Below are positions 570 through 61,819 of a DNA stretch of 62,096 bases, one piece after another. The stretch's first letter is position 1. Every line of letters begins with the position of its first letter. Source of the DNA: Candidatus Nomurabacteria bacterium RIFCSPLOWO2_12_FULL_40_42 (GTDB lineage Bacteria > Patescibacteriota > Minisyncoccia > Phycocordibacterales > UBA9973); NCBI GenBank assembly GCA_001786195.1, contig MFVS01000017.1:1-62096 (forward strand). The letters run 5' to 3'. The position numbers and the translations under genes were made by a program. Under the pieces are notes generated by a model. It saw nothing but the letters and a program-made list of their open reading frames with translations, ran no database searches and was not told where the DNA came from.

Positions 570-2036
570 ATGCGAAACAGAATTTATATCAAAGACCTTA
601 AAGAACATATCGGTAAAGAAGTCATCATCGCCGGATGGGTGGATGTGAGGAGGGATCAGGGGAAAATGATCTTTTTTGATATGCGGGATATGACCGGCAA
701 GGTGCAATGTGTGGCTTTGCCAGGTAAAAACTTTCCGTCAAAGAATTTTCCCGCCTTCGCCCTCGGAGACAAAGGACAGGGAACCCACGGCTTCTTAAAT
801 TCTTCGCCGGAAAGTTTAGTCAAAGAGATCAGGCCGGAGTGGGTTTTAAAAATTACCGGCAAGGTAAACAAGCGTCCGGAGAAAAATATAAAGGCTGAAG
901 TGTTAAATGGCGATCTGGAACTAGAAGTCACTCAGATAGAAGTTTTAAATAAGGCGGAAACGACTCCTTTTCAAATCACTGAAAGCACTATCGGGATCAA
1001 TGAGGATTTGAGAATGAAATACAAATATCTTGATTTGCGCACGGAAAGGATGCAAAAAAATATTCGTATGCGAGACAAAATTATTTCTTTCTTTCGCGAT
1101 TATATGCACAAAAACGGTTTTATTGAAATTGAAACTCCGATTTTAATGAAAGGCACGCCGGAAGGTTCTCGCGAGTATGTAGTTCCATCCAGACTTTTTA
1201 ATGGAAAATTTTATGTGCTACCGCAATCGCCTCAGCAATTTAAACAACTTTGTATGGTAGCTGGTTTTGAGAAATATTTTCAAATTGCGCGTTGCATGCG
1301 AGACGAAGATACAAGAGGAGACAGACAACTTGAATTTACCCAATTAGATTTCGAGATTTCTTTTGTCACCCAAGAAGAGGTGCTCGAATACACAGAAGCC
1401 ATGTTTATTGAACTGGTAAAGAATGTTTACCCTGAGAAAAAGATTTCCAAAATTCCTTTTCCTAGAATCTCTTATGCCGAGTCAATGAAAAAATATGGTT
1501 CCGACAAACCGGATATGCGGGTAAATAAAAATGATCCGAACGAGCTTGCTTTTGTGTGGGTTTTAGATTTCCCGATGTTTGAGAAAACGAAAGAAGGAGA
1601 ACTTCAAGCTGTGCATCATCCATTTTGTTCAATCAAAGAAGAAGATAAAGAAAAATTTATAAAAGGGGAAGATATGTTTTCAATTAGAGCTAACGCTTAT
1701 GATCTAGTTTTAAATAGCTATGAATTATCTTCCGGCTCGATTAGAATTCACGAGAGAGCCATTCAAAAGCAAGTGTTTGATTTACTGAAGATTTCCGAAG
1801 AAGAGCAACAGAAAAGATTTGGACACATGCTCGAAGCGTTTACTTTTGGTGCGCCTCCGCATGGAGGTTTTGCCCCGGGCATTGATCGAATCGTGATGAT
1901 TTTGCAAAATGAACCAAATATTCGCGAAGTTATCGCTTTTCCAAAAACCGGAGAAGGCAGGGATTTAATGATGGGTTCGCCTGCGTCCATTACCGACAAA
2001 CAGTTGAAAGAGCTTGGGATAAAATTGGTGAAATAA
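570..2036 (+). CDS. aspS: aspartyl-tRNA synthetase, bacterial type lacking the GAD insertion domain
   Basis: Class II motifs FIEIETPIL, FQIARCMRDEDTRGDRQLEFTQLD and GGFAPGIDRIVMIL. N-terminal OB fold. YGSDKPDMR runs almost directly into LAFVWVLDFPMFE. Confidence 0.95.
   Translation: MRNRIYIKDLKEHIGKEVIIAGWVDVRRDQGKMIFFDMRDMTGKVQCVALPGKNFPSKNFPAFALGDKGQGTHGFLNSSPESLVKEIRPEWVLKITGKVNKRPEKNIKAEVLNGDLELEVTQIEVLNKAETTPFQITESTIGINEDLRMKYKYLDLRTERMQKNIRMRDKIISFFRDYMHKNGFIEIETPILMKGTPEGSREYVVPSRLFNGKFYVLPQSPQQFKQLCMVAGFEKYFQIARCMRDEDTRGDRQLEFTQLDFEISFVTQEEVLEYTEAMFIELVKNVYPEKKISKIPFPRISYAESMKKYGSDKPDMRVNKNDPNELAFVWVLDFPMFEKTKEGELQAVHHPFCSIKEEDKEKFIKGEDMFSIRANAYDLVLNSYELSSGSIRIHERAIQKQVFDLLKISEEEQQKRFGHMLEAFTFGAPPHGGFAPGIDRIVMILQNEPNIREVIAFPKTGEGRDLMMGSPASITDKQLKELGIKLVK
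728..817. repeat. 90-nt inverted-repeat element inserted in-frame in the aspS OB-fold domain
   Basis: AAACTTTCCG (728-737) pairs with CGGAAAGTTT (808-817). AAGAATTT (741-748) pairs with AAATTCTT (797-804). The interior is GC-rich. 90 nt = 30 codons (NFPSKNFPAFALGDKGQGTHGFLNSSPESL). Confidence 0.7.
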
Positions 2037-2044
2037 TTTTTTTA

Positions 2045-2374
2045 ATGAATTACACAATTTCGGGCATTGTGATAAAAGGCGACGGATATGGCAGAAAACT
2101 TGGGTTTCCGACGGTGAATTTAAAAACACAGACTAAAGAGCTTCCGCCGGAGGGAGTATATGCTGGAGTTGTTGCGCTAGATGGTGTAGAGTACAGAGCT
2201 GGAATTGTAATAGGGCCTCGTGATAGAATAGAGGCACATCTTATAGGTTACGAAGGAGATGCATATGGAAAGACAGTGATACTCCAAACAAAAAAATTTT
2301 TGAGAAAATATCAAAAATTCGACACTGAACAGGAATTGATTATTCAAATAAAAAAAGATATAGAAAAATGTTAA
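2045..2374 (+). CDS. stand-alone riboflavin kinase domain protein
   Basis: 109 aa with GIVIKGDGYGRKLGFPTVNL, typical of the RibF C-terminal kinase domain. No FAD synthetase half. Confidence 0.8.
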   Translation: MNYTISGIVIKGDGYGRKLGFPTVNLKTQTKELPPEGVYAGVVALDGVEYRAGIVIGPRDRIEAHLIGYEGDAYGKTVILQTKKFLRKYQKFDTEQELIIQIKKDIEKC

Positions 2375-3354
2375 AAAATTACACCGGTCCAATTTTTATT
2401 CTTATTGCCGCGACTCTCTGGGCTTTTGATGGGCTGATTCGCCAGCATTTGTATACGCTGCCGCCGATTACCATAATATTCTTCGAGCACTTGATTGGTC
2501 TAGCGCTTTTGTTTCCTTTTGTTCACAAATATATTTTTAGCACAAAATTAACCAAGCGCGAATGGTGGCTGGTAGTTTTGATCGCGATTTTAAGCGGGCT
2601 TTTCGGGACTTTATGGTTTACGACTGCGCTCGGCAAAGTGCATTTTATTACCATATCCGTCGTCTTTTTGTTGCAGAAACTTCAGCCAATCTTTGCCATC
2701 ACTTCGGCCAGAATTTTTTTGAAGGAAAAACTCGATCAGCGATATGTCAAATGGGCCGTGCTCGCCATCATTGCCGCTTATTTCGTAACTTTCAAAAATG
2801 GATATGTTGATTTCTCGGCTGGCGGGGGAGGCAAAGAGACTCTGATTGCGGCGCTCTATGCGCTCGGTGCCGCATTTGCCTGGGGCTCTTCCACCACCTT
2901 TTCCAAAATGCTTTTAGGAAAAGTGGACCCCGTTAGAAGTCGCGCTCGCGACTTTGCCGCGAGTCCTTCGGACCGCGGCGCGGCTACTTCTAACGGGGTG
3001 GATTTTAAAGTTAGTACTTTTTATAGATTTTTAGTCACAATAATAGTCGCTCTGCCTGTCCTCTTTTTGTTTGGCAAGGGATCGAGTTTATCCGCGCCGA
3101 CTACTTCGCAATTTGGATTACTGGCGCTTATTGCTGTCTCGACCGGCATGGTGGCACTTTTGATTTATTACAAAGGGCTGGCTAAAACCCCGGTGCATAT
3201 TTCTACCATTCTGGAACTGACGTTTCCTTTTGTTGCCATTTTATTAGATTTTATCGTCAACCATACTGTTCTAGCTCCGTCTCAATGGCTCGCGGCGATC
3301 GTGTTGGTTTTTAGTATTTACCAGATTGCTAGGTTGCGTGAAAGCATTACGTAA
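2368..3354 (+). CDS. EamA/DMT family transporter
   Basis: 328 aa, about 10 hydrophobic helices in two halves, typical EamA-like composition. ATG overlaps the upstream stop. Confidence 0.8.
   Translation: MLKNYTGPIFILIAATLWAFDGLIRQHLYTLPPITIIFFEHLIGLALLFPFVHKYIFSTKLTKREWWLVVLIAILSGLFGTLWFTTALGKVHFITISVVFLLQKLQPIFAITSARIFLKEKLDQRYVKWAVLAIIAAYFVTFKNGYVDFSAGGGGKETLIAALYALGAAFAWGSSTTFSKMLLGKVDPVRSRARDFAASPSDRGAATSNGVDFKVSTFYRFLVTIIVALPVLFLFGKGSSLSAPTTSQFGLLALIAVSTGMVALLIYYKGLAKTPVHISTILELTFPFVAILLDFIVNHTVLAPSQWLAAIVLVFSIYQIARLRESIT
2928..3002. repeat. MITE-like palindromic element plus target duplication, in-frame in the EamA gene
   Basis: 14-bp perfect terminal IR ACCCCGTTAGAAGT (2927-2940) / ACTTCTAACGGGGT (2986-2999). 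Inner hairpins GTCGCG..CGCGAC and GTCC-TTCG-GGAC. GTGGA at 2923-2927 is repeated at 2998-3002. The inserted block is 75 nt = 25 codons. Confidence 0.75.
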
Positions 3355-3773: not shown

Positions 3774-5273
3774 ATGGAAAATTTAGAAACGAGTAAACAA
3801 AAACACATTCCCATTACTATCGATAAAAGTCATTTAGTGACTATTGGCGAAAAACTCTATACAGAAAAAATGAGTTTCTTGCGCGAGTTGGTAAATAACG
3901 CCTACGATGCCGATGCGACAGAAGTAAGAATTGATATTTTACCCGACGCCATAACTGTTGCCGATAATGGCAGCGGCATGGATGAAAAAGGTTTGGGTCA
4001 GTATTTTACCATTGGTTCTTCGTTTAAAAAAGATCACGAAAAAAGCCCGATATTTAGCAGACAAAGAATAGGTGAGTTTGGTATTGGTAAATTCGCGGTG
4101 TTGTCTAGTTGTAAGGAATTTATTGTGGAAACGGAGCGGGGAGATTTTCGAGCGCGATTAGTGTTTGACAAAGAAGTTTGGTCACGGCACCAAGACTGGC
4201 ACGTCAACATAGATATACTGACGAAAAACACAGCCAAGGGCAATGGTACCATTATTATCTTACGGAATGTTGACAGTCAATTTCAATTGCCGAAAGTCCG
4301 TCGTTATTTGGCTGAACGCACACCGATCAACACGCCGAACTTCTCGGTATTTTTGAATGGAGAAAAGGTTACTGACAATATTGTCGTAGGAAGACAATTG
4401 CCTTTCCATCATATTACTCCATACGGCATCGTGAGCGGACAAATTATTGTAAGCCCAGTCAATCACAGAAGCGAGAAAATAGGCATCGCTGTTTTAGTTA
4501 AAGGTGTCTTGGTGAAATACGAAACTTTCGGATTGGAAACTTCTCGCAAATGGGGCGTAACTAGAATTACCGGCAAAATCAACGCCGACTTCTTGCCTAT
4601 TACCAGCAGTCGGGATGACTTTTTGCGAGATACACCAGAGTATGTTATTTTTTCGGATTTAATAAAAAAAGAAATAGCCAAAGTGTTGCACATCCTGCGG
4701 CAAGAAGGAGATGTTAAAGCCAATATTCAGGCCTCCAAAGTGCTCAAAGACGCTCTTTTTAAAATAGGAAAAGCCATGAAAAATTTTAAAAATGCCTTTC
4801 CGGGAGTTCAGGTGCCGATGGGCGAAGCCGCTTTATCTGAATTTTCTAAAACCAGCGATGGTTATGAAATTTCCAAAGCAGAGTTTTTAGATTTCCAAAC
4901 CAATCTTGATCCAGAAATTCAAAAACGGCTTGCAGAGAATAAAGAAAAGAAAAAAGGGAGAGGGAGGCCAAGCGCCATTTTAGGAAACAAATCTGTGGTG
5001 CGGACGCTGAAAGTCGCCAATCTAGACATCGCGGTGCGTCTGGAACATTTGGGCGGAGATGATGAATCCATGATTGCAAGCGGTGTCATTTATATTAATC
5101 TTGATCATCCTCTCTATCGCACCTACCAGAAAAATGACGAACAATTAACTCAACATATTGCTCGCATTTTAACGAAAGAATTAACCCTGCAGACCGGAGT
5201 CAAAGACGCCGAGCAAGCCTTCGCTCTGCAAGCGGGTCTCTTAACCGATGCGCTCAAAGACAAAGGAGCGTAG
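3774..5273 (+). CDS. GHKL-superfamily ATPase (HATPase_c_3 / MORC-Hsp90-like N-domain), orphan
   Basis: LRELVNNAYDADATEVRI (N box), DNGSGMD (G1), IGEFGIGKFA (G2). 499 aa, C-terminal part unassigned. Confidence 0.8.
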   Translation: MENLETSKQKHIPITIDKSHLVTIGEKLYTEKMSFLRELVNNAYDADATEVRIDILPDAITVADNGSGMDEKGLGQYFTIGSSFKKDHEKSPIFSRQRIGEFGIGKFAVLSSCKEFIVETERGDFRARLVFDKEVWSRHQDWHVNIDILTKNTAKGNGTIIILRNVDSQFQLPKVRRYLAERTPINTPNFSVFLNGEKVTDNIVVGRQLPFHHITPYGIVSGQIIVSPVNHRSEKIGIAVLVKGVLVKYETFGLETSRKWGVTRITGKINADFLPITSSRDDFLRDTPEYVIFSDLIKKEIAKVLHILRQEGDVKANIQASKVLKDALFKIGKAMKNFKNAFPGVQVPMGEAALSEFSKTSDGYEISKAEFLDFQTNLDPEIQKRLAENKEKKKGRGRPSAILGNKSVVRTLKVANLDIAVRLEHLGGDDESMIASGVIYINLDHPLYRTYQKNDEQLTQHIARILTKELTLQTGVKDAEQAFALQAGLLTDALKDKGA

Positions 5274-5335
5274 GTTTTCTATGTGATATTTTTAGTTAAT
5301 GAAGCGCATAACTAAAATTAAGTAAAAAAGATTAA

Positions 5336-5371
5336 ATACCATAATAGCAACGGCCGTTGCTATTATGGTAT
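5336..5371. repeat. 36-nt perfect palindrome (family E), bidirectional-terminator-like
   Basis: ATACCATAATAGCAACGG|CCGTTGCTATTATGGTAT. It lies between convergent genes ending at 5273 (+) and 5450 (-), with an A-tract before and a T-tract after. Confidence 0.8.
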
Positions 5372-5449
5372 TTTGTAGTTAGGTGAAATCAAAAAGGGCG
5401 GGTCGTGTTTCAGACGATCTCCGCCCAGATGTTGCGTGGCCAGCGCGAT

Positions 5450-5833
5450 TTAGGCCTTTTTCCTTTCTCCACAATGAGCACAGTATGTGCCAGGGATACA
5501 GCCCCAGTCTGTTCTCCTTGTGCGATCTTCCTCAACTTCTTCCCATTTGTGTCTTCCGTTTGGTGATTTTTCGCAGGGCTTCAATTTTTCTCCGATCCAA
5601 ACGATCATGCCACAGCAAATGGCATAAAAGATGGCAAAGAGAAAAAACAAGATAGCGAGGGAGAACAGAAGAAGAAATGTAGACAGGATTAATGCCACAG
5701 CAAATGCCCACAATGGTGGAACTTTTCCTGCATGATCGTAGAAGATGTACATCATTCCTTCCGCTAAGAAGAAACAAGGCACACCGAGGATGAAGTAAAG
5801 TAAGAGATTGGGGGGAATAGTGTATTTTTTCAT
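5450..5833 (-). CDS. membrane protein with C-terminal Cys/His-rich (zinc-ribbon-like) tail
   Basis: Start moved to ATG 5833 (AAAGGAAAAAATG context). 3-4 hydrophobic helices, then C..H..C..CxxC. Confidence 0.55.
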   Translation of the reverse strand: MKKYTIPPNLLLYFILGVPCFFLAEGMMYIFYDHAGKVPPLWAFAVALILSTFLLLFSLAILFFLFAIFYAICCGMIVWIGEKLKPCEKSPNGRHKWEEVEEDRTRRTDWGCIPGTYCAHCGERKKA

Positions 5834-12570: not shown

Positions 12571-12606
12571 ATAGCGTAATAGAAGCGGCCGCGTCCATTA
12601 TGCTAT
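12571..12606. repeat. palindrome family E, degenerate copy
   Basis: ATAGCGTAATAGAAGCGG|CCGCGTCCATTATGCTAT, between convergent genes ending at 12569 (+) and 12630 (-). Confidence 0.6.
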
Positions 12607-20913: not shown

Positions 20914-20936
20914 AAGCATTCTCTGTAATTTTTTTT

Positions 20937-20974
20937 ATTACCATAATAGACACGGCCGTTGCTATTATGGTAAT
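20937..20974. repeat. palindrome family E copy
   Basis: ATTACCATAATAGACACGG|CCGTTGCTATTATGGTAAT, between convergent genes ending at 20913 (+) and 21003 (-). Confidence 0.75.
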
Positions 20975-21002
20975 AGACATCTACTTTAGTTGAGTAAAGT
21001 AA

Positions 21003-21278
21003 TTAGCTGTGCATTGCAACATTCTTTGGCGTACTGGTTTTTTCAGTGTCGGCTATGGAATTATAAAATTCCTGCTCCGCTTCTTCTAGATTATAATCGT
21101 TTTCTACTGGAATAACCTCGGGGGCATATTTTATTTTTTTAATTTCCTCTGTTATTTTCGACACATCCTCTTTGGTCGCCCAAGTCGTCTTACCTCTCTT
21201 CTCAAAAAATCTGCTCAAAAATAAATTCAACAGTAATCCGACAATCGTGCCAATAAGAAATGTGTTTAAGAAATCCAT
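21003..21278 (-). CDS. small membrane-anchored protein (91 aa)
   Basis: N-terminal TM (FLIGTIVGLLLNLFL). The ATG abuts repeat D2. Confidence 0.5.
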   Translation of the reverse strand: MDFLNTFLIGTIVGLLLNLFLSRFFEKRGKTTWATKEDVSKITEEIKKIKYAPEVIPVENDYNLEEAEQEFYNSIADTEKTSTPKNVAMHS

Positions 21279-21357
21279 CCCGTACGAAATAATATTAAAC
21301 TAATAAATTTGACCATACTCATATATTAAACTATTTTAGCAAAATTTCGTACGGGAT
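21277..21357. repeat. inverted-repeat element, family D, copy D2
   Basis: ATCCCGTACGAAAT (21277-90) / ATTTCGTACGGGAT (21344-57). The interior aligns with D1 (..TAATAAATT..). The left end supplies the AT of ATG 21278. Confidence 0.75.
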
Positions 21358-21361
21358 CCAT

Positions 21362-21805
21362 TTAAATTTTTTCTATAATGAGTTTAAACGAGGACTTTTT
21401 GCCCTTAATGGAAATAGGGATTTCAAACCCCCCTACTTGCTTGATTGGTTTCTCGAGGATAATAAATTCCTCGCCAATATCGGCATGATTTTGCGCCTTC
21501 ATGGCCTCGATAATTTCTTTTTTGTGGACTTGGGCGAAGAGATGCCCTTTTTCGTCAGCTTTTTCCTTGATGGTGATGACTTTGCCTTTGATGGCCTCCA
21601 AATTTTTAAGTAGCAAGCTCTCTTGCACCTCCCTTTCGATGGCAATTTCTTTTTGGCGCAGTTCGAGTTCGGTTATCGCTTTCGGCGTGGCTACTACTGC
21701 TAGTTTTCTCGGCAGCAAAAAATTTACCGCATAGCCGTCATTAACCTCCTTGGTGTCATTTTTTCTGCCCACTCTTGGCACATCTCGTAAAAAAATTACT
21801 TTCAT
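21362..21805 (-). CDS. rplI: 50S ribosomal protein L9
   Basis: MKVIFLRDVPRVGRKNDTKEVNDGYAVNFLLPRKLA, canonical bL9 N-domain. 147 aa. Confidence 0.9.
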   Translation of the reverse strand: MKVIFLRDVPRVGRKNDTKEVNDGYAVNFLLPRKLAVVATPKAITELELRQKEIAIEREVQESLLLKNLEAIKGKVITIKEKADEKGHLFAQVHKKEIIEAMKAQNHADIGEEFIILEKPIKQVGGFEIPISIKGKKSSFKLIIEKI

Positions 21806-35072: not shown

Positions 35073-35106
35073 AGTGACAACTTCTGCGGCCGCATAAGTT
35101 GTCACT
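35073..35106. repeat. palindrome family F, copy F1 (NotI-centred)
   Basis: AGTGACAACTT-cTGCGGCCGCAt-AAGTTGTCACT, with 11-bp perfect arms. Lies between the divergent purB and wHTH-Cas2-fold promoters. Confidence 0.8.
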
Positions 35107-35133: not shown

Positions 35134-35631
35134 ATGAGTATTCCAGATTACATGTTTCGTCGGCTTACATATAAAGGTATGAGTGTTGATATGTTCGGTC
35201 TGCCGGAATTTCGTAATTATAAGATAAATTCTTTAAATGTTGCTTTCTCTAGATTAAAAAAGAAACATTACGTAACCTTCACTGGTTCAAGTTGGAAATT
35301 AACTAAAAATGGAGAAAAGTATTTTAAAAAAAGAAGTGCTCGCTTGCCTATCTTTAACTCAACCTTGGAAAAAGGATCTTCAAAAAATCTACTTTTAATA
35401 TTTGATATTCCTGAAGCCCGTAAAGCAGAAAGAGAATGGCTTCGTTTCCATTTAAAAAAATTCAATTATACTATGATTCAACAAAGCGCCTGGGTAGGTC
35501 CTTCTCCCCTGCCTCAAGAATTTTTAGATTATCTTAAAAACATAAAACTGAGAGATTGCATTAAGACATTCAAACTAGCAAGATCTTATCCTTGGAGCAG
35601 TAATGAACAGCGTAAGAAGGGACAAGGGTGA
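35134..35631 (+). CDS. PaaX-like protein: winged-helix N-domain plus Cas2-fold domain
   Basis: LLLIFDIPEARKAEREWLRFHLKKFNYTMIQQSAWVGP matches the Cas2/PaaX-middle-domain pattern (xxFDIP..kR..lr..L...gf..lq.SvW). Start moved from GTG 35119. Confidence 0.65.
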   Translation: MSIPDYMFRRLTYKGMSVDMFGLPEFRNYKINSLNVAFSRLKKKHYVTFTGSSWKLTKNGEKYFKKRSARLPIFNSTLEKGSSKNLLLIFDIPEARKAEREWLRFHLKKFNYTMIQQSAWVGPSPLPQEFLDYLKNIKLRDCIKTFKLARSYPWSSNEQRKKGQG

Positions 35632-35660
35632 CAAACTCTGCGGCCGCAGAATGTGTCACT
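35627..35660. repeat. palindrome family F, copy F2
   Basis: GGTGACAAACTCTGCGGCCGCAGAATGTGTCACT. Contains the TGA stop of the Cas2-fold gene and abuts the purC stop. Confidence 0.75.
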
Positions 35661-42859: not shown

Positions 42860-44761
42860 TCATAATTCAAATGCTTTTTTACCTATATCCCTCCTGTACT
42901 GCATTTCCTCAAACGAAATCCTTTCTATGGCCTTGTAGGCCTTTTGGAGGGCCACTTCCAGGGTTTTACCTATAGCAGAGACTCCCAACACCCGCCCGCC
43001 ATTGGTGACTAATTTATCATCTTTTATAGTGGTTCCGGCGTGAAAGATGACGATGTCACCACCCCCTCCCCCCTCCTCAAGGAGGATGGGGTTCCCCTTC
43101 TCATAATTCCCCGGATACCCGCCAGAAGAGAGTACAATGTTACAGGCGAAAATATGTTCCTTCCATTTAATTTCCTGGTCCTCAAGTTTCTTATCAATAC
43201 AAGCATCAACAATATCCAACAAATCGCTTTCCATTAGTCGCATATAGACTTGTGCCTCCGGATCGCCAAAGCGCGCGTTGTATTCCAAAATTTTTGGTCC
43301 TTCCTTCGTTAGGATTAAACCAGGATAGAGTATTCCTTCAAATGGTGTTCCATCTTTTCGAATGCCTTCCAAAGTCGGCGCCACGATTTCTTTTTCTATT
43401 CTCTGCATGAGCTTTTCATCTACAAAAGGGAGTGGCGATATGGTGCCCACACCTCCGGTATTCGCCCCCGTGTCCCCTTCGCCGATTTTTTTATGGTCTT
43501 GCGATGGCGGGAAAATTTTATAACTTTTGCCGTCGGAAAAAGCATGAATCGAAATTTCAGGACCGGTCAAAAATTCTTCAATAACTATCTCGTTACCCGA
43601 ATTTCCGAATGTCTTTTTGACCAACATATTCTCTAGCGCTTCATTTGCTTCTTCTAGGGTTTGGACAATTATTACCCCTTTGCCCAAGGCCAAGCCGCTA
43701 GCTTTGATCACAATCGGGAGAGATTTACTGGCTACATATTTTTTTGCTTTTTCAAATTCAGTAAATATCTCAAACTTGGCCGTCGGCAAGTTGTGTCGGC
43801 GCATGAAATCTTTTGAAAATGCCTTGGACCATTCCAGCTGTGCTGCCGCCTTGGTCGGCCCCCAGATCCGCAAACCAGCTTTCTTGAATTCGTCAACTAT
43901 ACCAAGCGCCAGCGGATCGTCCGAAAGTGCCAAAGTTAAATCAATTTTCTCTTTTTGCGCAAACTCTAAAAGTTTAGAAATTTCTGTTTCTTTAATATCT
44001 AAATTAGTTCCAAGCTGTGCCGTGCCGGCATTTCCTCGAGCAAAAAAAAGTTCTCCCACTCGAGGCGACTGCGCAATTTTCCAACTGATAGCATGTTCCC
44101 GTCCCCCACCCGCGCCAACTATTAAAATTTTTAAGACCTCATCCCCCGCCTTCCCCTGGAGGGGGAAGGAGCTCCCTCGCCTTTCAGGAGAGGGTTGGGG
44201 TGAGGTTAACTTTTCCAAAACTTCTACATACAACTCATTTTCTTTTTTCTTTAATCTCGCATACAAAGATTCAACTATGTCATTTGCTTCAATCTTTTCA
44301 AAAGTTCTTCCTAAAACCGATCCAAAGTCGAAATCTAAAGTTAAAAAATGAATACTAGAACTAGCATAAGTAGCTTTTTGGTCTAGAAAATTTTGGATGG
44401 CTTTACTGCCATACATTCCTTTATTCCAAAGCGCTATTGTGCCGTCTGGATTCTTTATGTTTCCATCAATTGTGTCTGGAATTAAGCCAGGATGTAAATT
44501 CAAGATTTTATTTGAATATTTTCTAATCAAATCATCCGGAATAATTTTATTCCAACCGCAAAGGCACAAATAATCTGGATTTATTTTTTCTATTATCGGC
44601 ATCGCGTTTTCTTTATCAGAAATCACTGTCGAAATTTCCGCATTTATCTTACCCATCTCGATTGCCTCCCTGATCGCCTTCAAATTGGTTTGAGTGCCTC
44701 CCTCATGCACCATGATCACTAATTTTATTTTTTCTGATTTTTTATTTGTTGGGGACATCAT
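42860..44761 (-). CDS. fusion protein: GAR formyltransferase-like (PurN) N-domain plus GAR synthetase (PurD)
   Basis: N-part: ILNLHPGLIP and formyltransferase fold order. C-part: KILIVGAGGREHAISWKI and ATP-grasp GARS. The domains are joined by repeat A2. Confidence 0.85.
   Translation of the reverse strand: MMSPTNKKSEKIKLVIMVHEGGTQTNLKAIREAIEMGKINAEISTVISDKENAMPIIEKINPDYLCLCGWNKIIPDDLIRKYSNKILNLHPGLIPDTIDGNIKNPDGTIALWNKGMYGSKAIQNFLDQKATYASSSIHFLTLDFDFGSVLGRTFEKIEANDIVESLYARLKKKENELYVEVLEKLTSPQPSPERRGSSFPLQGKAGDEVLKILIVGAGGGREHAISWKIAQSPRVGELFFARGNAGTAQLGTNLDIKETEISKLLEFAQKEKIDLTLALSDDPLALGIVDEFKKAGLRIWGPTKAAAQLEWSKAFSKDFMRRHNLPTAKFEIFTEFEKAKKYVASKSLPIVIKASGLALGKGVIIVQTLEEANEALENMLVKKTFGNSGNEIVIEEFLTGPEISIHAFSDGKSYKIFPPSQDHKKIGEGDTGANTGGVGTISPLPFVDEKLMQRIEKEIVAPTLEGIRKDGTPFEGILYPGLILTKEGPKILEYNARFGDPEAQVYMRLMESDLLDIVDACIDKKLEDQEIKWKEHIFACNIVLSSGGYPGNYEKGNPILLEEGGGGGDIVIFHAGTTIKDDKLVTNGGRVLGVSAIGKTLEVALQKAYKAIERISFEEMQYRRDIGKKAFEL
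44136..44206 (-). repeat. GC-rich palindromic element, family A, copy A2 (71 nt), forming the PurN-PurD linker
   Basis: Outer stem ACCTCATCCCC/GGGGTGAGGT. Inner hairpins CCTTCCCC..GGGGAAGG and CCCTC..GAGGG. Translated as LTSPQPSPERRGSSFPLQGKAGDEV. Confidence 0.75.
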
Positions 44762-46981: not shown

Positions 46982-47015
46982 AGTGACAAATCTAGCGGCC
47001 GCATAATCTGTCACT
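46982..47015. repeat. palindrome family F, copy F3
   Basis: AGTGACAAATCTAGCGGCCGCATAATCTGTCACT, between the stop of the Cys-rich gene (47017) and the purQ ATG. Confidence 0.75.
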
Positions 47016-48710: not shown

Positions 48711-51632
48711 TTAAATGTGTTTTCTCATTTTTTCTGAAAAACTATGATAAATTTTGTGTAATTTTTTAACATTGGTGTCTATTAATTTTAGACTACCGTC
48801 TGTAATGATAATTTTACCACTTTTCTCTACTTTTCCGAGTTTAGTAAAAGAGATTCCTTTCATTATTTTTTCAAATTGTTTGATGTTTTTTGGAGCTACA
48901 GATACTAAAATCCGACCCTGGCTTTCAGAGAAAAGTTTGGCGTCTACAGATAGCGCTTTAGGCGCTATCTGGGTGGAAATATTACATCCGAGCATACCGC
49001 CTACGCAGGCTTTAGCCACTGCAATTGCGAGCCCGCCACTTGTTACTGAAATTGACGAGGCCACTAATTCTTTTTGGATTGTTTTTTCCAAAGCCAAGTA
49101 AGTTTTCAGATTTTTTTCTAAATTCACTTTTGGCACACCCTGCTCATCATTTGTTTCGCCTAATAAATAAATTATATCGCCATCTTTTTTAAACTCTGGA
49201 GAAACGGTTTTATACAAGTTTGGCATGACGCCAATCGCGGAGATAAGCAAGGTCGGCGGGATGGAAATAGAGACTGGATTTCCTTTTTCGTCATAGCCTT
49301 TGAAGTCGTTGAACATACTGTCCTTGCCGGAGATGAAGGGTGTGCCATACGCCACTGCGCTGTCGTAACAGGCTTTTACGGTCTCTACAAGCTGTCCTAA
49401 CCGCCTTGGGTCATCGGATGAGCACCAGCAGAAGTTGTCCAAAATAGCCAGGTGAGAGAGCGTGCCGCCTGCGGCCACGATATTGCGGATAGCGGTGTCG
49501 AGCGCACAAGCGGCCATGTGATAAGTGCTAATGTCGCCATAGAAAGGATAGGTAGCCGAGGACAGTACCACTCCTTTATTAGAATTTAAAACTGGGCGGA
49601 AAACTTGCGCATCGGTATTGATGCGGCCAGGGCCGGAGAGAGGTTTCAAAACCGAAGAAGCTTGGACTTCGTGATCATACTGCTCCGAGATAAAAGAAAA
49701 TCCAGAAATATTTTTATCGGCAAGGAGATTTTCTAGAATTCCATTCAACCCACCCCTTCCCCCTCCCGAAGGGAGGGGATTCTCCCTCCCCTTTGGGGAG
49801 GGCTGGGGAGAGGTGAACAGCTGCTGCTTCGGCAGTCCATCATGCAAGAATTCCATATCTAAATCCATAACTTTTTTATTCCCATACTCAACCACTATTT
49901 TTCCGGAATTTGTGAATTCCCCTATCACCGTCGCTTCTACTCCCCGGCTCTCCATCAATTTTTGAAATGTTTTCCATTTCTGCTTTGGCACGGCGAGGGT
50001 CATGCGTTCCTGTGATTCAGAAATCCAAATCTCCCAAGGCTGCAGGCCGGGATATTTGAGTGGAACTTTTTCTAAAGAAATTTTTGCGCCACCCTGCCTA
50101 CCGGCAGGCAGGCACACTTCTTTAGCCATCTCTGCCACCGAGCAAGAAATTCCGCCGGCGCCATTGTCGGTGATGCTGTTATATAAATTTTTGTCGCGCG
50201 CTTCTTTGACTATTGCGTCGCTTAATTTTTTCTGGGTGATCGGGTCGCCTATTTGCACTGCCGCCGCCGGAGAATTTGAATCAAGGGTTACGGAAGAAAA
50301 AGTCGCGCCATGAATGCCGTCAAGGCCCACTCGGCCACCTACTATGACTATATAGTCGCCCGCCCGTGCTTTTTTTTCGTACGAACGTCTAATTCCGCCT
50401 GAGGCGGGCAAGTTTCTCGGAATTAAGCCGACGGTGCCGGCAAAAACCAACGGCTTGCCGCGATAGCGATCGTCAAATTTTATAAATCCGGAAAGCGTCG
50501 GGATTCCGGAGCAATTGCCGCCCACATTGATACCTTTGATTACTCCTTGCATTATTCGCACAGGTAATAACATTTCATTTTTTAAATCTTTGTTCCGGAA
50601 AAGCGGTTTGGTTTCATTTGGATTGCCGAAACAAAAGCCATAAGTGTTGGCGACTGGCTTGGCGCCGAGTCCAAAGCCAATCGTGTCGCGATTGACGCCG
50701 ACTATACCGGTGATCGCTCCGCCGAAAGGATCTAAGGCCGAAGGGCTGTTGTGCGTCTCGACTTTATGGATTATTAAATAGTTTTCATCAAAAATTATTC
50801 CGCCGGCGTTGTCTGAAAAAACCGAAACGCAGAAATCCCCGCCTTTGGATGGGGCAAGCCTTCCCTTTTTCTGTTTTTTTGCTCTTATTAAATTCGTGGC
50901 TCCTTTGATGTAAGTTTTATATAGACCATCCTTAATATCATCTATCGGATTGGCAAAAATAGTGTGCTTGCAATGCTCCGACCAGGTCTGGGCCAGAGAT
51001 TCCAATTCGATATCAGTCGGATCTCTTTTTAATTTTCTAAAATGCTCCGCAATAGTTTGCATCGAAGGCAAATCTAACGCCAGCGGCCCTCTGCGCTTCT
51101 GCTCTTTGCCATTATCTAATATTCCCTCTTTGCCTATCTTAATTAATTCTTCTTCACTTACTTCCAGATCTACGTTGATAACCGGTTTTCTTTTTTTAAG
51201 TACTACTTTTGGAATTTCAGCTTTCAAATGTATTTTTTTATTCTTTACTGGCACAATTTTAGCTCTTTCAATCAACGGATTATACAAAGTCAAGGCGATT
51301 TTTTGAGCGTGTTCTTTCGTGCCGGAAACAAAAAAAATCTTCGAGGTATAGACCGCGAAGTTGTCAGACTTTTTCAGATGTAATAAATCAGATGCAATTT
51401 CTTTGACCGTGTGACCAACATTGTCTGTCACGCCGGGTAGAAATCCTATTTCAATAGCGTAACTAAAATCTTTTATATTGCTTAACTTATCAATACAGAA
51501 GCTTTCCAGAATAGGATTAGTCAGTGCTTGAGCTAGTTGTTCAATCTTATGTCTCGACAATTTAGAGTCAATAAGATAAGAATCTGCCCTCGAACTTACT
51601 TTCTTAGGGCTCACATATATTCGCGAAATCAT
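48711..51632 (-). CDS. purL: FGAM synthase II (PurL) with ~160-aa PurS-like N-terminal extension
   Basis: WSEHCKHTIF, DNAGG, ETHNSPSA, GATFSS motifs. The N-terminus (..FLPGVTDNVGHTVKEI..) resembles the N-domain of large PurL. No separate purS seen. Confidence 0.9.
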   Translation of the reverse strand: MISRIYVSPKKVSSRADSYLIDSKLSRHKIEQLAQALTNPILESFCIDKLSNIKDFSYAIEIGFLPGVTDNVGHTVKEIASDLLHLKKSDNFAVYTSKIFFVSGTKEHAQKIALTLYNPLIERAKIVPVKNKKIHLKAEIPKVVLKKRKPVINVDLEVSEEELIKIGKEGILDNGKEQKRRGPLALDLPSMQTIAEHFRKLKRDPTDIELESLAQTWSEHCKHTIFANPIDDIKDGLYKTYIKGATNLIRAKKQKKGRLAPSKGGDFCVSVFSDNAGGIIFDENYLIIHKVETHNSPSALDPFGGAITGIVGVNRDTIGFGLGAKPVANTYGFCFGNPNETKPLFRNKDLKNEMLLPVRIMQGVIKGINVGGNCSGIPTLSGFIKFDDRYRGKPLVFAGTVGLIPRNLPASGGIRRSYEKKARAGDYIVIVGGRVGLDGIHGATFSSVTLDSNSPAAAVQIGDPITQKKLSDAIVKEARDKNLYNSITDNGAGGISCSVAEMAKEVCLPAGRQGGAKISLEKVPLKYPGLQPWEIWISESQERMTLAVPKQKWKTFQKLMESRGVEATVIGEFTNSGKIVVEYGNKKVMDLDMEFLHDGLPKQQLFTSPQPSPKGRENPLPSGGGRGGLNGILENLLADKNISGFSFISEQYDHEVQASSVLKPLSGPGRINTDAQVFRPVLNSNKGVVLSSATYPFYGDISTYHMAACALDTAIRNIVAAGGTLSHLAILDNFCWCSSDDPRRLGQLVETVKACYDSAVAYGTPFISGKDSMFNDFKGYDEKGNPVSISIPPTLLISAIGVMPNLYKTVSPEFKKDGDIIYLLGETNDEQGVPKVNLEKNLKTYLALEKTIQKELVASSISVTSGGLAIAVAKACVGGMLGCNISTQIAPKALSVDAKLFSESQGRILVSVAPKNIKQFEKIMKGISFTKLGKVEKSGKIIITDGSLKLIDTNVKKLHKIYHSFSEKMRKHI
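49751..49815 (-). repeat. GC-rich palindromic element, family A, copy A3, in-frame inside purL
   Basis: Hairpins CCCTCCC-GAA-GGGAGGG and CCCTCCCC-TTT-GGGGAGGG. Translated as FTSPQPSPKGRENPLPSGGGRGG. Confidence 0.75.
50093..50112. repeat. mini-palindrome family B (CCTGCCT..AGGCAGG) inside purL
   Basis: CCTGCCTACCGGCAGGCAGG. Translated on the minus strand as LPAGRQG. Confidence 0.65.
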
Positions 51633-61276: not shown

Positions 61277-61522
61277 AGTTATTTTTATTTAACTTACTAA
61301 ACTAGTTTACAATAAAAAACGACCAGAAATTTTTATTGCGGACACATCTTAATTATCTCGCATCTCTAAACATAACACAATGATTTTTTGCCAAAACTGT
61401 GGATAACTTTTTATTTTGTAAACAAAAAAATTGTTTCCATTTGAAGCGGGTGATGGCGAAACTCCAACATATGTGCCTATGTGAGTGCGACCACCCGCTA
61501 CAGATAAAAACAATTTAAGTAT

Positions 61523-61819
61523 TTATATTTTTGCTTCAATTTTCTGAACTCGATTTTCAAGTTCTTTATATATAATTTTAGAAACTTTATTTTCTGCAAA
61601 ATCATCTATTCTTTTTTCTAGTCTTTCAGCATCAGTCTTTGTTGCTATATCTTTAATATTTTCCTTGGTTGCCATTTTTGCTTCCAAATTTTTTAAATCT
61701 TCTTTGGTTGCCGCATTCTCAAAACCTTTAGCTACCATCATCGCCAATTTATCTATTGTTATCTTACTACTCCTATCATTTTTTTTATTTCCCTTAACCA
61801 TTTTATTTTTTTTCTTCAT
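61523..61819 (-). CDS. hypothetical coiled-coil protein
   Basis: 98 aa, Lys/Glu-rich heptad-like sequence. No family recognised. Confidence 0.4.
   Translation of the reverse strand: MKKKNKMVKGNKKNDRSSKITIDKLAMMVAKGFENAATKEDLKNLEAKMATKENIKDIATKTDAERLEKRIDDFAENKVSKIIYKELENRVQKIEAKI

Follow-up and report, generated by a model that had tools for sequence, protein, structure and literature searches.

A MITE-like palindromic element inserted in frame in an EamA transporter gene of a Nomurabacteria genome, very probably one copy of a very large family

Introduction

Classical bacterial MITEs (miniature transposable elements with inverted repeats), such as Correia, ERIC/IRU, RUP, Nezha, and QMITE, have a common plan: they are small and non-coding, end in inverted repeats, duplicate their target site, are present in many copies, and are occasionally located in genes. 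Each of these families is restricted to one genus or species; they usually exceed 100 bp, lie mostly in intergenic DNA, and often have a known parent insertion sequence (IS). Rickettsia palindromic elements (RPEs) are not known to combine a clear inverted repeat with a target duplication. Found in Rickettsia species, RPEs measure about 150 bp and lie in frame in unrelated genes, where they are tolerated as an extra peptide (reviewed in PMC10969869). Here, we describe an element located in frame in the gene of an EamA-family transporter, on a contig of Candidatus Nomurabacteria (MFVS01000017.1, 62,096 nt; this whole stretch of DNA is hereafter called the window). The block at positions 2928-2998 is very probably one copy of a non-autonomous, MITE-like foldback transposable element, member of a very large family.

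In what they do, RPEs and the classical MITEs come nearest to the family of the EamA element. The likeness to RPEs is one of behavior only, and the family differs from them in its size (23-160 bp), 13-bp inverted repeat, 4-bp duplication, core length of 3n+2 nt, and presence in many phyla. As in the classical MITEs, we found a small and non-coding sequence, inverted repeats, a duplication of fixed length with single-copy empty sites, and near-identical copies elsewhere; the differences are a 10-bp terminus held across phyla and copies of about 30 nt. The length rule, the minimal size, the covarying arms, and the cross-phylum reach exceed those of the described MITE-like families. Among the literature matches listed for the arm sequences, there were only primers and an engineered oligonucleotide, reviews and surveys of MITEs make no mention of such a family, and apparently it was previously undescribed in Rfam and in the searchable literature.

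Anatomy of the element in the EamA gene

The features of the locus are given below, with the evidence for each in brackets.

2368..3354, plus strand: EamA/DMT-family transporter of 328 aa, an intact open reading frame (ORF) that reads through the element (ORF list; Pfam EamA, 1.6e-30)
2924..2927, unstranded: target-site duplication of 4 bp, left copy, TGGA (single copy in orthologous empty sites)
2928..2940, unstranded: left terminal inverted repeat, CCCCGTTAGA (2928-2937) plus the variable triplet AGT (2938-2940) (arm comparison among 132 copies)
2941..2985, unstranded: G+C-rich interior, subfamily "71a" (folds; the translated interior recurs in other proteins)
2939-2952, unstranded: inner hairpin candidate GTCGCG/CGCGAC, borrowing two bases of the left repeat (folds)
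2957-2978, unstranded: inner hairpin candidate CCGCG-GTCC/GGAC-CGCGG (folds)
2986..2998, unstranded: right terminal inverted repeat, ACT plus TCTAACGGGG (arm comparison)
2999..3002, unstranded: target-site duplication of 4 bp, right copy, TGGA (sequence; ortholog comparison)

The region reads AAAG TGGA CCCCGTTAGAAGT CGCGCTCGCGACTTTGCCGCGAGTCCTTCGGACCGCGGCGCGGCT ACTTCTAACGGGG TGGA TTTTAAAG. An earlier note on this DNA had proposed a MITE-like element in an EamA transporter, and this proposal is sustained by the Pfam match of the gene and by the other copies, the duplications, and the empty sites reported below. Two of its details need correction. The 14-bp perfect inverted repeat that it described is indeed there (ACCCCGTTAGAAGT at 2927-2940, with the exact reverse complement at 2986-2999), but the conserved repeat is of 13 bp: the 14th arm pair, A2927-T2999, falls beyond this repeat and arises because the duplication has the form TNNA. 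Likewise, GTGGA is present at 2923-2927 and again at 2998-3002, but the duplication is of exactly 4 bp, not 5, with the TGGA of 2924-2927 repeated at 2999-3002. The G2923 of the left GTGGA is a flanking target base, which matches the G preceding the duplication in the family consensus, and the G2998 of the right one is the final base of the element. The core, set by family-wide comparison, is CCCC...GGGG at 2928-2998 (71 nt).

The inserted block is of 75 nt, or 25 codons, and keeps the frame of ORF 2368..3354, in agreement with the earlier note; it reads as DPVRSRARDFAASPSDRGAATSNGV. The genome from which the window derives is low in G+C (about 40%). The fold of the element has −48.8 kcal/mol as RNA (z −4.4 versus shuffles) and −28.9 kcal/mol as DNA (z −5.9 versus shuffles). 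Copies of the element in the community, retrieved on groundwater metagenome contigs, differ at 2953-2957 and 2967-2968. At the gathering score, the sole Rfam match in the window was a tRNA, with none on the element, and at E values up to 10 the element was overlapped only by chance-level miRNA matches (E ≥1). The terminator scan called none on the coding strand at the element.

Filled and empty sites in the orthologous transporters

Ortholog comparisons were carried out on the 120 best EamA homologs, which their depositors label as Nomurabacteria/Paceibacterota (Patescibacteria/candidate phyla radiation, CPR). These proteins are mostly of 299-306 aa, against 328 aa in the window, and their consensus at the site is ...SKMLLGKVD-FKVSTFYRF... 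(the hyphen marks the insertion point). Deletion of the block from the window gives K-V-D-F-K, as the earlier note had predicted, and this is the GKVDFKVS of the ortholog consensus. The short spacing of seven residues was found in 103/120 orthologs, and the block is missing from about 110/120. An insert at exactly the site of the window is present in 8/120, scattered over the tree, with the nearest neighbors empty each time. The inserts of the filled orthologs have common ends (PVR...SNGV) and different interiors, which are of two 25-residue types and one 18-residue type.

The duplications and interiors of the filled alleles are as follows (L numbers are our own handles).

Window: left repeat TGGA, interior 71a, right repeat TGGA
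L001 EamA: left repeat TGGA, interior 71b, right repeat TAGA
L002 EamA: left repeat TTGG, interior decayed 71a, right repeat TTGA
L003 EamA: left repeat TTGA, interior 50-nt, right repeat TTGA
L133 EamA: left repeat TTGA, interior 50-nt, right repeat TTGA
L134 EamA: left repeat TGGA, interior 50-nt, right repeat TGGA
L135 EamA: left repeat TGGA, interior 50-nt, right repeat TGGA

One additional filled allele of the 50-nt type (L212) came from the metagenome scan. The orthologous empty sites, a comparison suggested by the earlier note, were found: three sequenced ones carry a single copy of TGGA or TAGA (GTGGAT in L124, ATAGAT in L125, and ATGGAT in L126) and, therefore, the insertion duplicated 4 bp. 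The element would have entered the TGGA of the Val-Asp codons (GTG GAT), so that the loop joining transmembrane helices 6 and 7 is longer by 25 residues and the ORF stays intact. The loop location had been anticipated in the earlier note; in an AlphaFold2 model of low confidence (predicted local distance difference test, pLDDT, 42), of which only the helix boundaries were used, the insert covers about residues 188-212, between helix 6 (155-182) and helix 7 (213-235) of a 10-helix protein, and the hydrophobic pattern agrees. The Arg-rich peptide of the insert would suit a cytoplasmic loop.

In about 20 public runs, the filled allele reaches its full word share, and it is therefore stable in the source population. 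This observation, the strong fold, and the repeated filling of the site in orthologs could also be coherent with a block retained for the host, either as an mRNA structure (stability, pausing, or processing) or as a useful Arg-rich cytoplasmic loop. We consider such a host function improbable: it has against it the many orthologs without the block, the unrelated peptides encoded by the interiors at this same site, the occurrence of the same element, in either orientation, both between genes and within unrelated proteins, and the lack of an Rfam match and of a called coding-strand terminator. From these sequence comparisons, the insert appears to be a tolerated passenger and not a functional part of the transporter.

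A second short indel of about eight residues (..NPGFEMG..) was seen in the next loop of the EamA orthologs P0076, P0112, and P0118 (alignment A1, columns 255-262). It could be another small insertion.

Copies at other loci and in other lineages

One genome per species was scanned for CCCCGTTAGA-N(25-55)-TCTAACGGGG. This pair of arms occurs at at least 120 loci in these species representatives, whereas chance alone would give about 17 (our own estimate: 596e9 positions × 31 gap lengths / 4^20). Among the loci listed, roughly 45 belong to Patescibacteria, of many classes, roughly 40 to Planctomycetota, and about 13 to Omnitrophota. Further labels among them are Cloacimonadota, Bacteroidota, Ignavibacteria-like, Nitrospirota, Nitrospinota, Desulfobacterota, Clostridia, Stahlbacteria, and Edwardsbacteria, and one listed locus is archaeal, from a genome bin of Methanosarcinales. 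Since some of the matches are on contigs of 0.5-1.7 Mb, mis-binning cannot account for the spread over phyla. The same pattern was also retrieved from five viral contigs, one of which encodes a terminase, and phages are a possible vehicle between hosts.

A second and independent scan was run on metagenome contigs, with only the left flank and the left arm fixed (AARGTNGACCCCGTTAGA), and 90 non-redundant elements of 23-161 nt were listed. The window is present in four metagenomes of the source groundwater; in X5, the run of greatest depth, the contig depth over 2934-2995 rises about sevenfold, from about 81 to 578. Many metagenome contigs match the window only from 2923/2928 to 2997/3003 and then run into unrelated sequence. 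At the protein level, the translated 71a consensus PVRSRARDKVASPxDRGAATSNGV was found in an Fpg glycosylase, in a YidD protein, and in three other proteins, and the concatenated-peptide search gave one weak match, P0121. Copies elsewhere, which the earlier note had proposed to count, are thus present in genomes, in metagenomes and, for the same 71-nt subfamily, in other proteins.

Contig L001, from a relative, holds the element twice, in adjacent genes and with the same 69-nt interior both times. The duplication is a perfect TAGA at one copy and TGGA/TAGA, with one mismatch, at the other; the flavokinase gene of the window is empty at the second site of L001.

A chance palindrome in a lineage-specific loop extension, not mobile, would be in line with the presence of one copy only in the 62-kb window. 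This explanation, to which we assign practically no weight, is refuted by the many copies, the target duplications, and the orthologous empty sites.

Other copies are reported here as separate observations. The IMG/VR contig L128, which has a terminase gene, carries family copies at 2297-2354 and 5697-5725, the second of 29 nt and with a CTCA duplication. The locus L091 has, at 2547-2590 and 4092-4135, a GTTAAA variant subfamily with arms CCCCGTTAAAT...ATTTAACGGGG, in frame (PVKSG...FNGV) in a glycosyltransferase and in an O-antigen-ligase-like protein, and therefore the 10-mer of the arms is not strictly invariant. An identical 38-nt copy (PVREPTEKASNGV) occurs at one place of a D-x-N-x-D-x-KVD calcium-binding/dockerin-like repeat in L154, L181, L206, L224, L232, and L245; these six contigs may represent another repeatedly occupied site or a paralog family.

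Target-site duplication and arm structure

A perfect 4-bp direct repeat lies outside CCCC...GGGG in 61/125 genome copies (49%), and 18 more have it with one mismatch. The flanks are inverted in only 6 copies, and hardly any copy has a direct repeat of another length (3, 5, or 6 bp). Among the metagenome copies, for which the right side was unconstrained, the repeat is perfect in 75/90 (83%). The short direct repeats that the earlier note had suggested to look for around all copies are thus of 4 bp. The target consensus is palindromic, G-TNNA-C, with G at −1 in 32/61 and C at +1 in 26/61; the commonest duplications are TTTA/TAAA and TTGA/TCAA, and TTAA is present in 0/61. A 2-bp duplication with A/T inside the repeat was excluded on the basis of TTTG, TGAG, and CTTA, in which the direct repeat is kept and the palindrome is broken.

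The terminal inverted repeat of 13 bp consists of CCCCGTTAGA and three covarying bases. The invariance of the first 10 bp in the sampled copies is a requirement of the search pattern, and positions 11-13 were unconstrained. Positions 11 and 12 pair in 124/132 copies and position 13 in 101/132, the triplets including AAT, AGT, GAT, GGC, and TAA; at position 14, pairing falls to 44/132, which is about the chance level.

The cores of the family measure 23-161 nt and are non-coding. Their interiors go from A+T-rich and unstructured to G+C-rich, with a median fold z of −0.12 and about 18% of the copies below −2. A recurrent class of 62-65 nt (for example, L086, L015, L058, L035, L074, and L032) has two inner hairpins, mostly of 6-8 bp, whose shape is kept and whose sequences differ. 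Copies of 23-35 nt with duplications also occur, and therefore the two inner hairpins are dispensable: the outer stem with two hairpins described in the earlier note is real in a subset of the copies, but it is not required.

Short G+C-rich palindromes in many copies, with an inverted pair of arms resembling a REPIN doublet, call to mind REPs (sequences that are repetitive, extragenic, and palindromic) and REPINs, spread by RAYT, a TnpA-like Y1 enzyme. We regard this origin as very improbable, since REPs are extragenic, species-specific, and without target duplication, and none of these three properties is found in the family of the EamA element, which has a 4-bp duplication, sits in ORFs, and shows the same 10-mer across phyla. 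In addition, the element has no GTAG or CGTC tag, which is reported as a feature of REPs in PMC3733652.

Core length and reading frame

The core length leaves a remainder of 2 when divided by 3 in 73/124 genome copies (p = 8e-9) and in 54/90 metagenome copies (p = 2.5e-7), both p values being inflated by the non-independence of subfamilies, and a three-base periodicity of length is seen from 47 to 74 nt. A core of 3n+2 nt plus the 4-bp duplication adds whole codons. Moreover, each arm contains a single stop, TAG on the left (core positions 7-9) and TAA on the right (from L−7, where L is the core length), and the two are in the same frame exactly when L = 3n+2, so that two of the three frames per strand are open. 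The open readings of the 3n+2 copies are x-PVR...SNG-x or PLE...LTG.

ORFs that stay open for 50 codons or more to either side of the element contain 29/124 copies, all of them 3n+2 (23 read PVR...SNG and 6 read PLE...LTG), and 0/51 of the copies of other lengths. The interiors of the 3n+2 copies are mildly depleted of stops, with 2.85 open frames out of 4 versus 2.42 in shuffled sequences. Copies of this length can survive inside the genes of gene-dense genomes. The length rule may be an adaptation or a simple outcome of survival.

Probable recurrent occupation of the EamA site

We read the EamA site as a preferred site, recurrently entered by different subtypes, since the filled alleles include 71a, 71b, and 50-nt interiors. 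Such recurrence is not general, as 0/120 flavokinase orthologs are filled at the site of L001.

The rival history is that of one ancient insertion in the EamA gene of the Nomurabacteria/Paceibacterota ancestor, followed by many independent precise excisions, by the transposase or by replication slippage over the hairpin, from one 4-bp repeat to the other. A hairpin with short flanking direct repeats is a classic substrate of slippage deletion, the empty sites have no footprint, the elements of the window and of the distant L002 are nearly identical in their right half, and the filled alleles of one subtype are in a single orientation. Nonetheless, we judge this history rather unlikely. It has to place three different interiors at one site and a loss in each of the roughly 110 empty orthologs out of 120, and the EamA copy of L001 is identical to the second copy in the neighboring gene. 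The third base of the Val codon, the sole free position of the duplication, is equal between both copies in 5/6 filled alleles, yet it is G or T depending on the lineage (by our own estimate, the probability of such a match is about 0.01 if saturated). Furthermore, DNA identity among the host genes is 70-75%, against 92% for the 50-nt copies of L003 and L133, the sole pair compared position by position.

Allele transfer by homologous recombination was rejected, the flanks of filled-filled pairs being no more alike than those of filled-empty pairs. The repeated occupation of the EamA site would be a concrete case for studying target choice versus precise excision.

Candidate enzymes and mechanism of movement

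Insertion duplicates 4 bp at a G-TNNA-C target, and a 4-bp duplication implies a 4-nt staggered cut; a transposase acting in trans would mobilize the element. Our leading guess, a tentative one, is a double-stranded cut-and-paste DDE transposase, and we give a smaller chance to a hairpin-specific enzyme.

Among the known enzymes, piggyBac duplicates TTAA and IS1380 duplicates 4-5 bp; the termini are CC/CCC...GG/GGG, the terminal repeat of piggyBac is of 13 bp (CCCTAGAAAGATA), and excision is precise. A link between piggyBac and IS1380 is mentioned in the literature. The EamA element resembles them in its 4-bp duplication and CC...GG termini, and precise excision would fit the footprint-free empty sites. 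It differs from piggyBac in the TNNA target, with TTAA never found among the 61 perfect duplications, and the ISEcp1 terminus of IS1380 (CCTAGATTCTACGT) is not evidently homologous. A piggyBac/IS1380-like enzyme is thus taken as a lead, with no claim of membership.

Several observations weigh against a MITE-like element mobilized in trans. The genome and metagenome samples are the matches listed and are not random, and the phylum labels were taken from the bins as named by their depositors. The 62-kb window holds a single copy of the family; no further match of the ACCCCGTTAGAAGT type was found in it with up to two mismatches (0.21 expected). Among the filled EamA alleles, each subtype has one orientation, contrary to what would be expected of independent insertions. 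Within about 0.9 Mb of loci, the arm pairs separated by 0.4-4 kb enclosed no transposase and were separate small copies, as in L091, and no IS1380-type transposase was found by tblastn with the ISEcp1 transposase. No transposase family recurs beside the elements in an all-vs-all blastp of 863 ORFs from 125 loci, in which housekeeping families alone recur. The phage contigs L128 and L130 have terminase and capsid genes and no transposase. Finally, covariation of the arms is atypical of DDE transposons, and the covariation of three arm bases, together with the copies of 23-35 nt, fits recognition of a folded hairpin better than a DDE enzyme.

Accordingly, the element could instead move as a folded single-stranded hairpin, via a HUH/Y1-type nuclease or a folded-DNA recombinase, like the ends of IS200/IS605 or the attC sites of integrons. 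We hold this for possible, with a clear preference for other mechanisms. The pairing of arm positions 11-13 (101-124/132) stops abruptly at position 14, the functional-looking copies of 23-35 nt are scarcely more than the arms and a small loop, and the 62-65-nt class keeps the shape of its two inner hairpins despite the differing sequences. Conversely, known IS200/IS605 elements use a fixed target tetranucleotide without duplication, and most interiors of the family are unstructured, as seen from the fold z scores reported above. An IS200/IS605-type element was discarded because the flanking repeat is variable and truly duplicated.

The comparison with attC has a similar outcome. These sites are imperfect palindromes of 50-140 nt recognized as folded DNA, and GTTAGA/TCTAAC are equal to typical R'/R'' boxes, but the polarity of the stem is opposite. 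Indeed, an integron attC was rejected on the basis of the reversed order (the 5' arm bears GTT... and the 3' arm ...AAC, versus RYYYAAC...GTTRRRY on both strands of attC), the lack of cassette arrays, and the 4-bp duplication; the neighbors of the elements are housekeeping genes, not cassettes.

A more far-reaching proposal, which we put forward with reserve and consider unlikely, is that the family represents a novel type of mobile element: a hairpin with nothing beyond two 13-nt arms and a few bases as its minimal unit, recognized by structure and sequence, adapted to ORFs by its 3n+2 length, selecting its targets on more than the consensus of 4-6 bp, reinserting in EamA in the same orientation in a homing-like way, and spread across phyla, an archaeal bin, and phages.

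If the reading as a MITE-like foldback element is true, in-frame peptide insertions derived from the family would be widespread in the housekeeping proteins of uncultured CPR/Patescibacteria, Planctomycetota, and Omnitrophota, which bears on alignments, structure prediction, and claims of lineage-specific insertions. The element would also be a transposon that cuts its cost in gene-dense genomes by a rule of length and stop codons, and the 10-bp terminus with the G-TNNA-C target would imply a conserved and broadly distributed enzyme.

Other palindromes of the window

The earlier note had distinguished the EamA element by sequence from a "family A" of the window, and the two are indeed separate families. 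Family A presumably corresponds to the related G+C-rich elements at 44140-44205 and 49750-49822, located in ORFs 42860..44761(-) and 48711..51632(-), respectively. They have an outer stem of the CCTCACCCC/GGGGTGAGG type and two inner hairpins, and they are read in frame as ...TSPQPSPERRGSSFPLQGKAGDE... and ...TSPQPSPKGRENPLPSGGGRGG...; a third segment with G/C runs lies at 43055-43100.

At 728-817, within ORF 570..2036 of the aspartyl-tRNA synthetase, a G+C-rich segment is enclosed by an imperfect inverted repeat of 21 nt (AAACTTTCCGTCAAAGAATTT/AAATTCTTCGCCGGAAAGTTT). With respect to the aspartyl-tRNA synthetase of the relative L003, this is an in-frame insert of 24 residues in the OB-fold domain, and it looks like a second and unrelated in-frame palindromic insertion.

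Four palindromes with a GCGGCCGC core are located between genes or at gene ends (12571-12606, 35073-35106, 35628-35659, and 46982-47015). Three of them have the form (A)GTGACAA-N5-GCGGCCGC-N5-TTGTCAC(T), and the copy at 12571 has other arms; the motif could be operator-like or terminator-like. A 40-bp palindrome, with halves AAATACCATAATAGCAACGG and CCGTTGCTATTATGGTATTT, is present in two copies, one perfect (5334-5373) and one 90% complementary (20936-20975). Long imperfect inverted repeats, with arms of 32 and 39 nt placed 29 nt apart, were found in A+T-rich intergenic DNA at 21271-21363 and 61419-61525.

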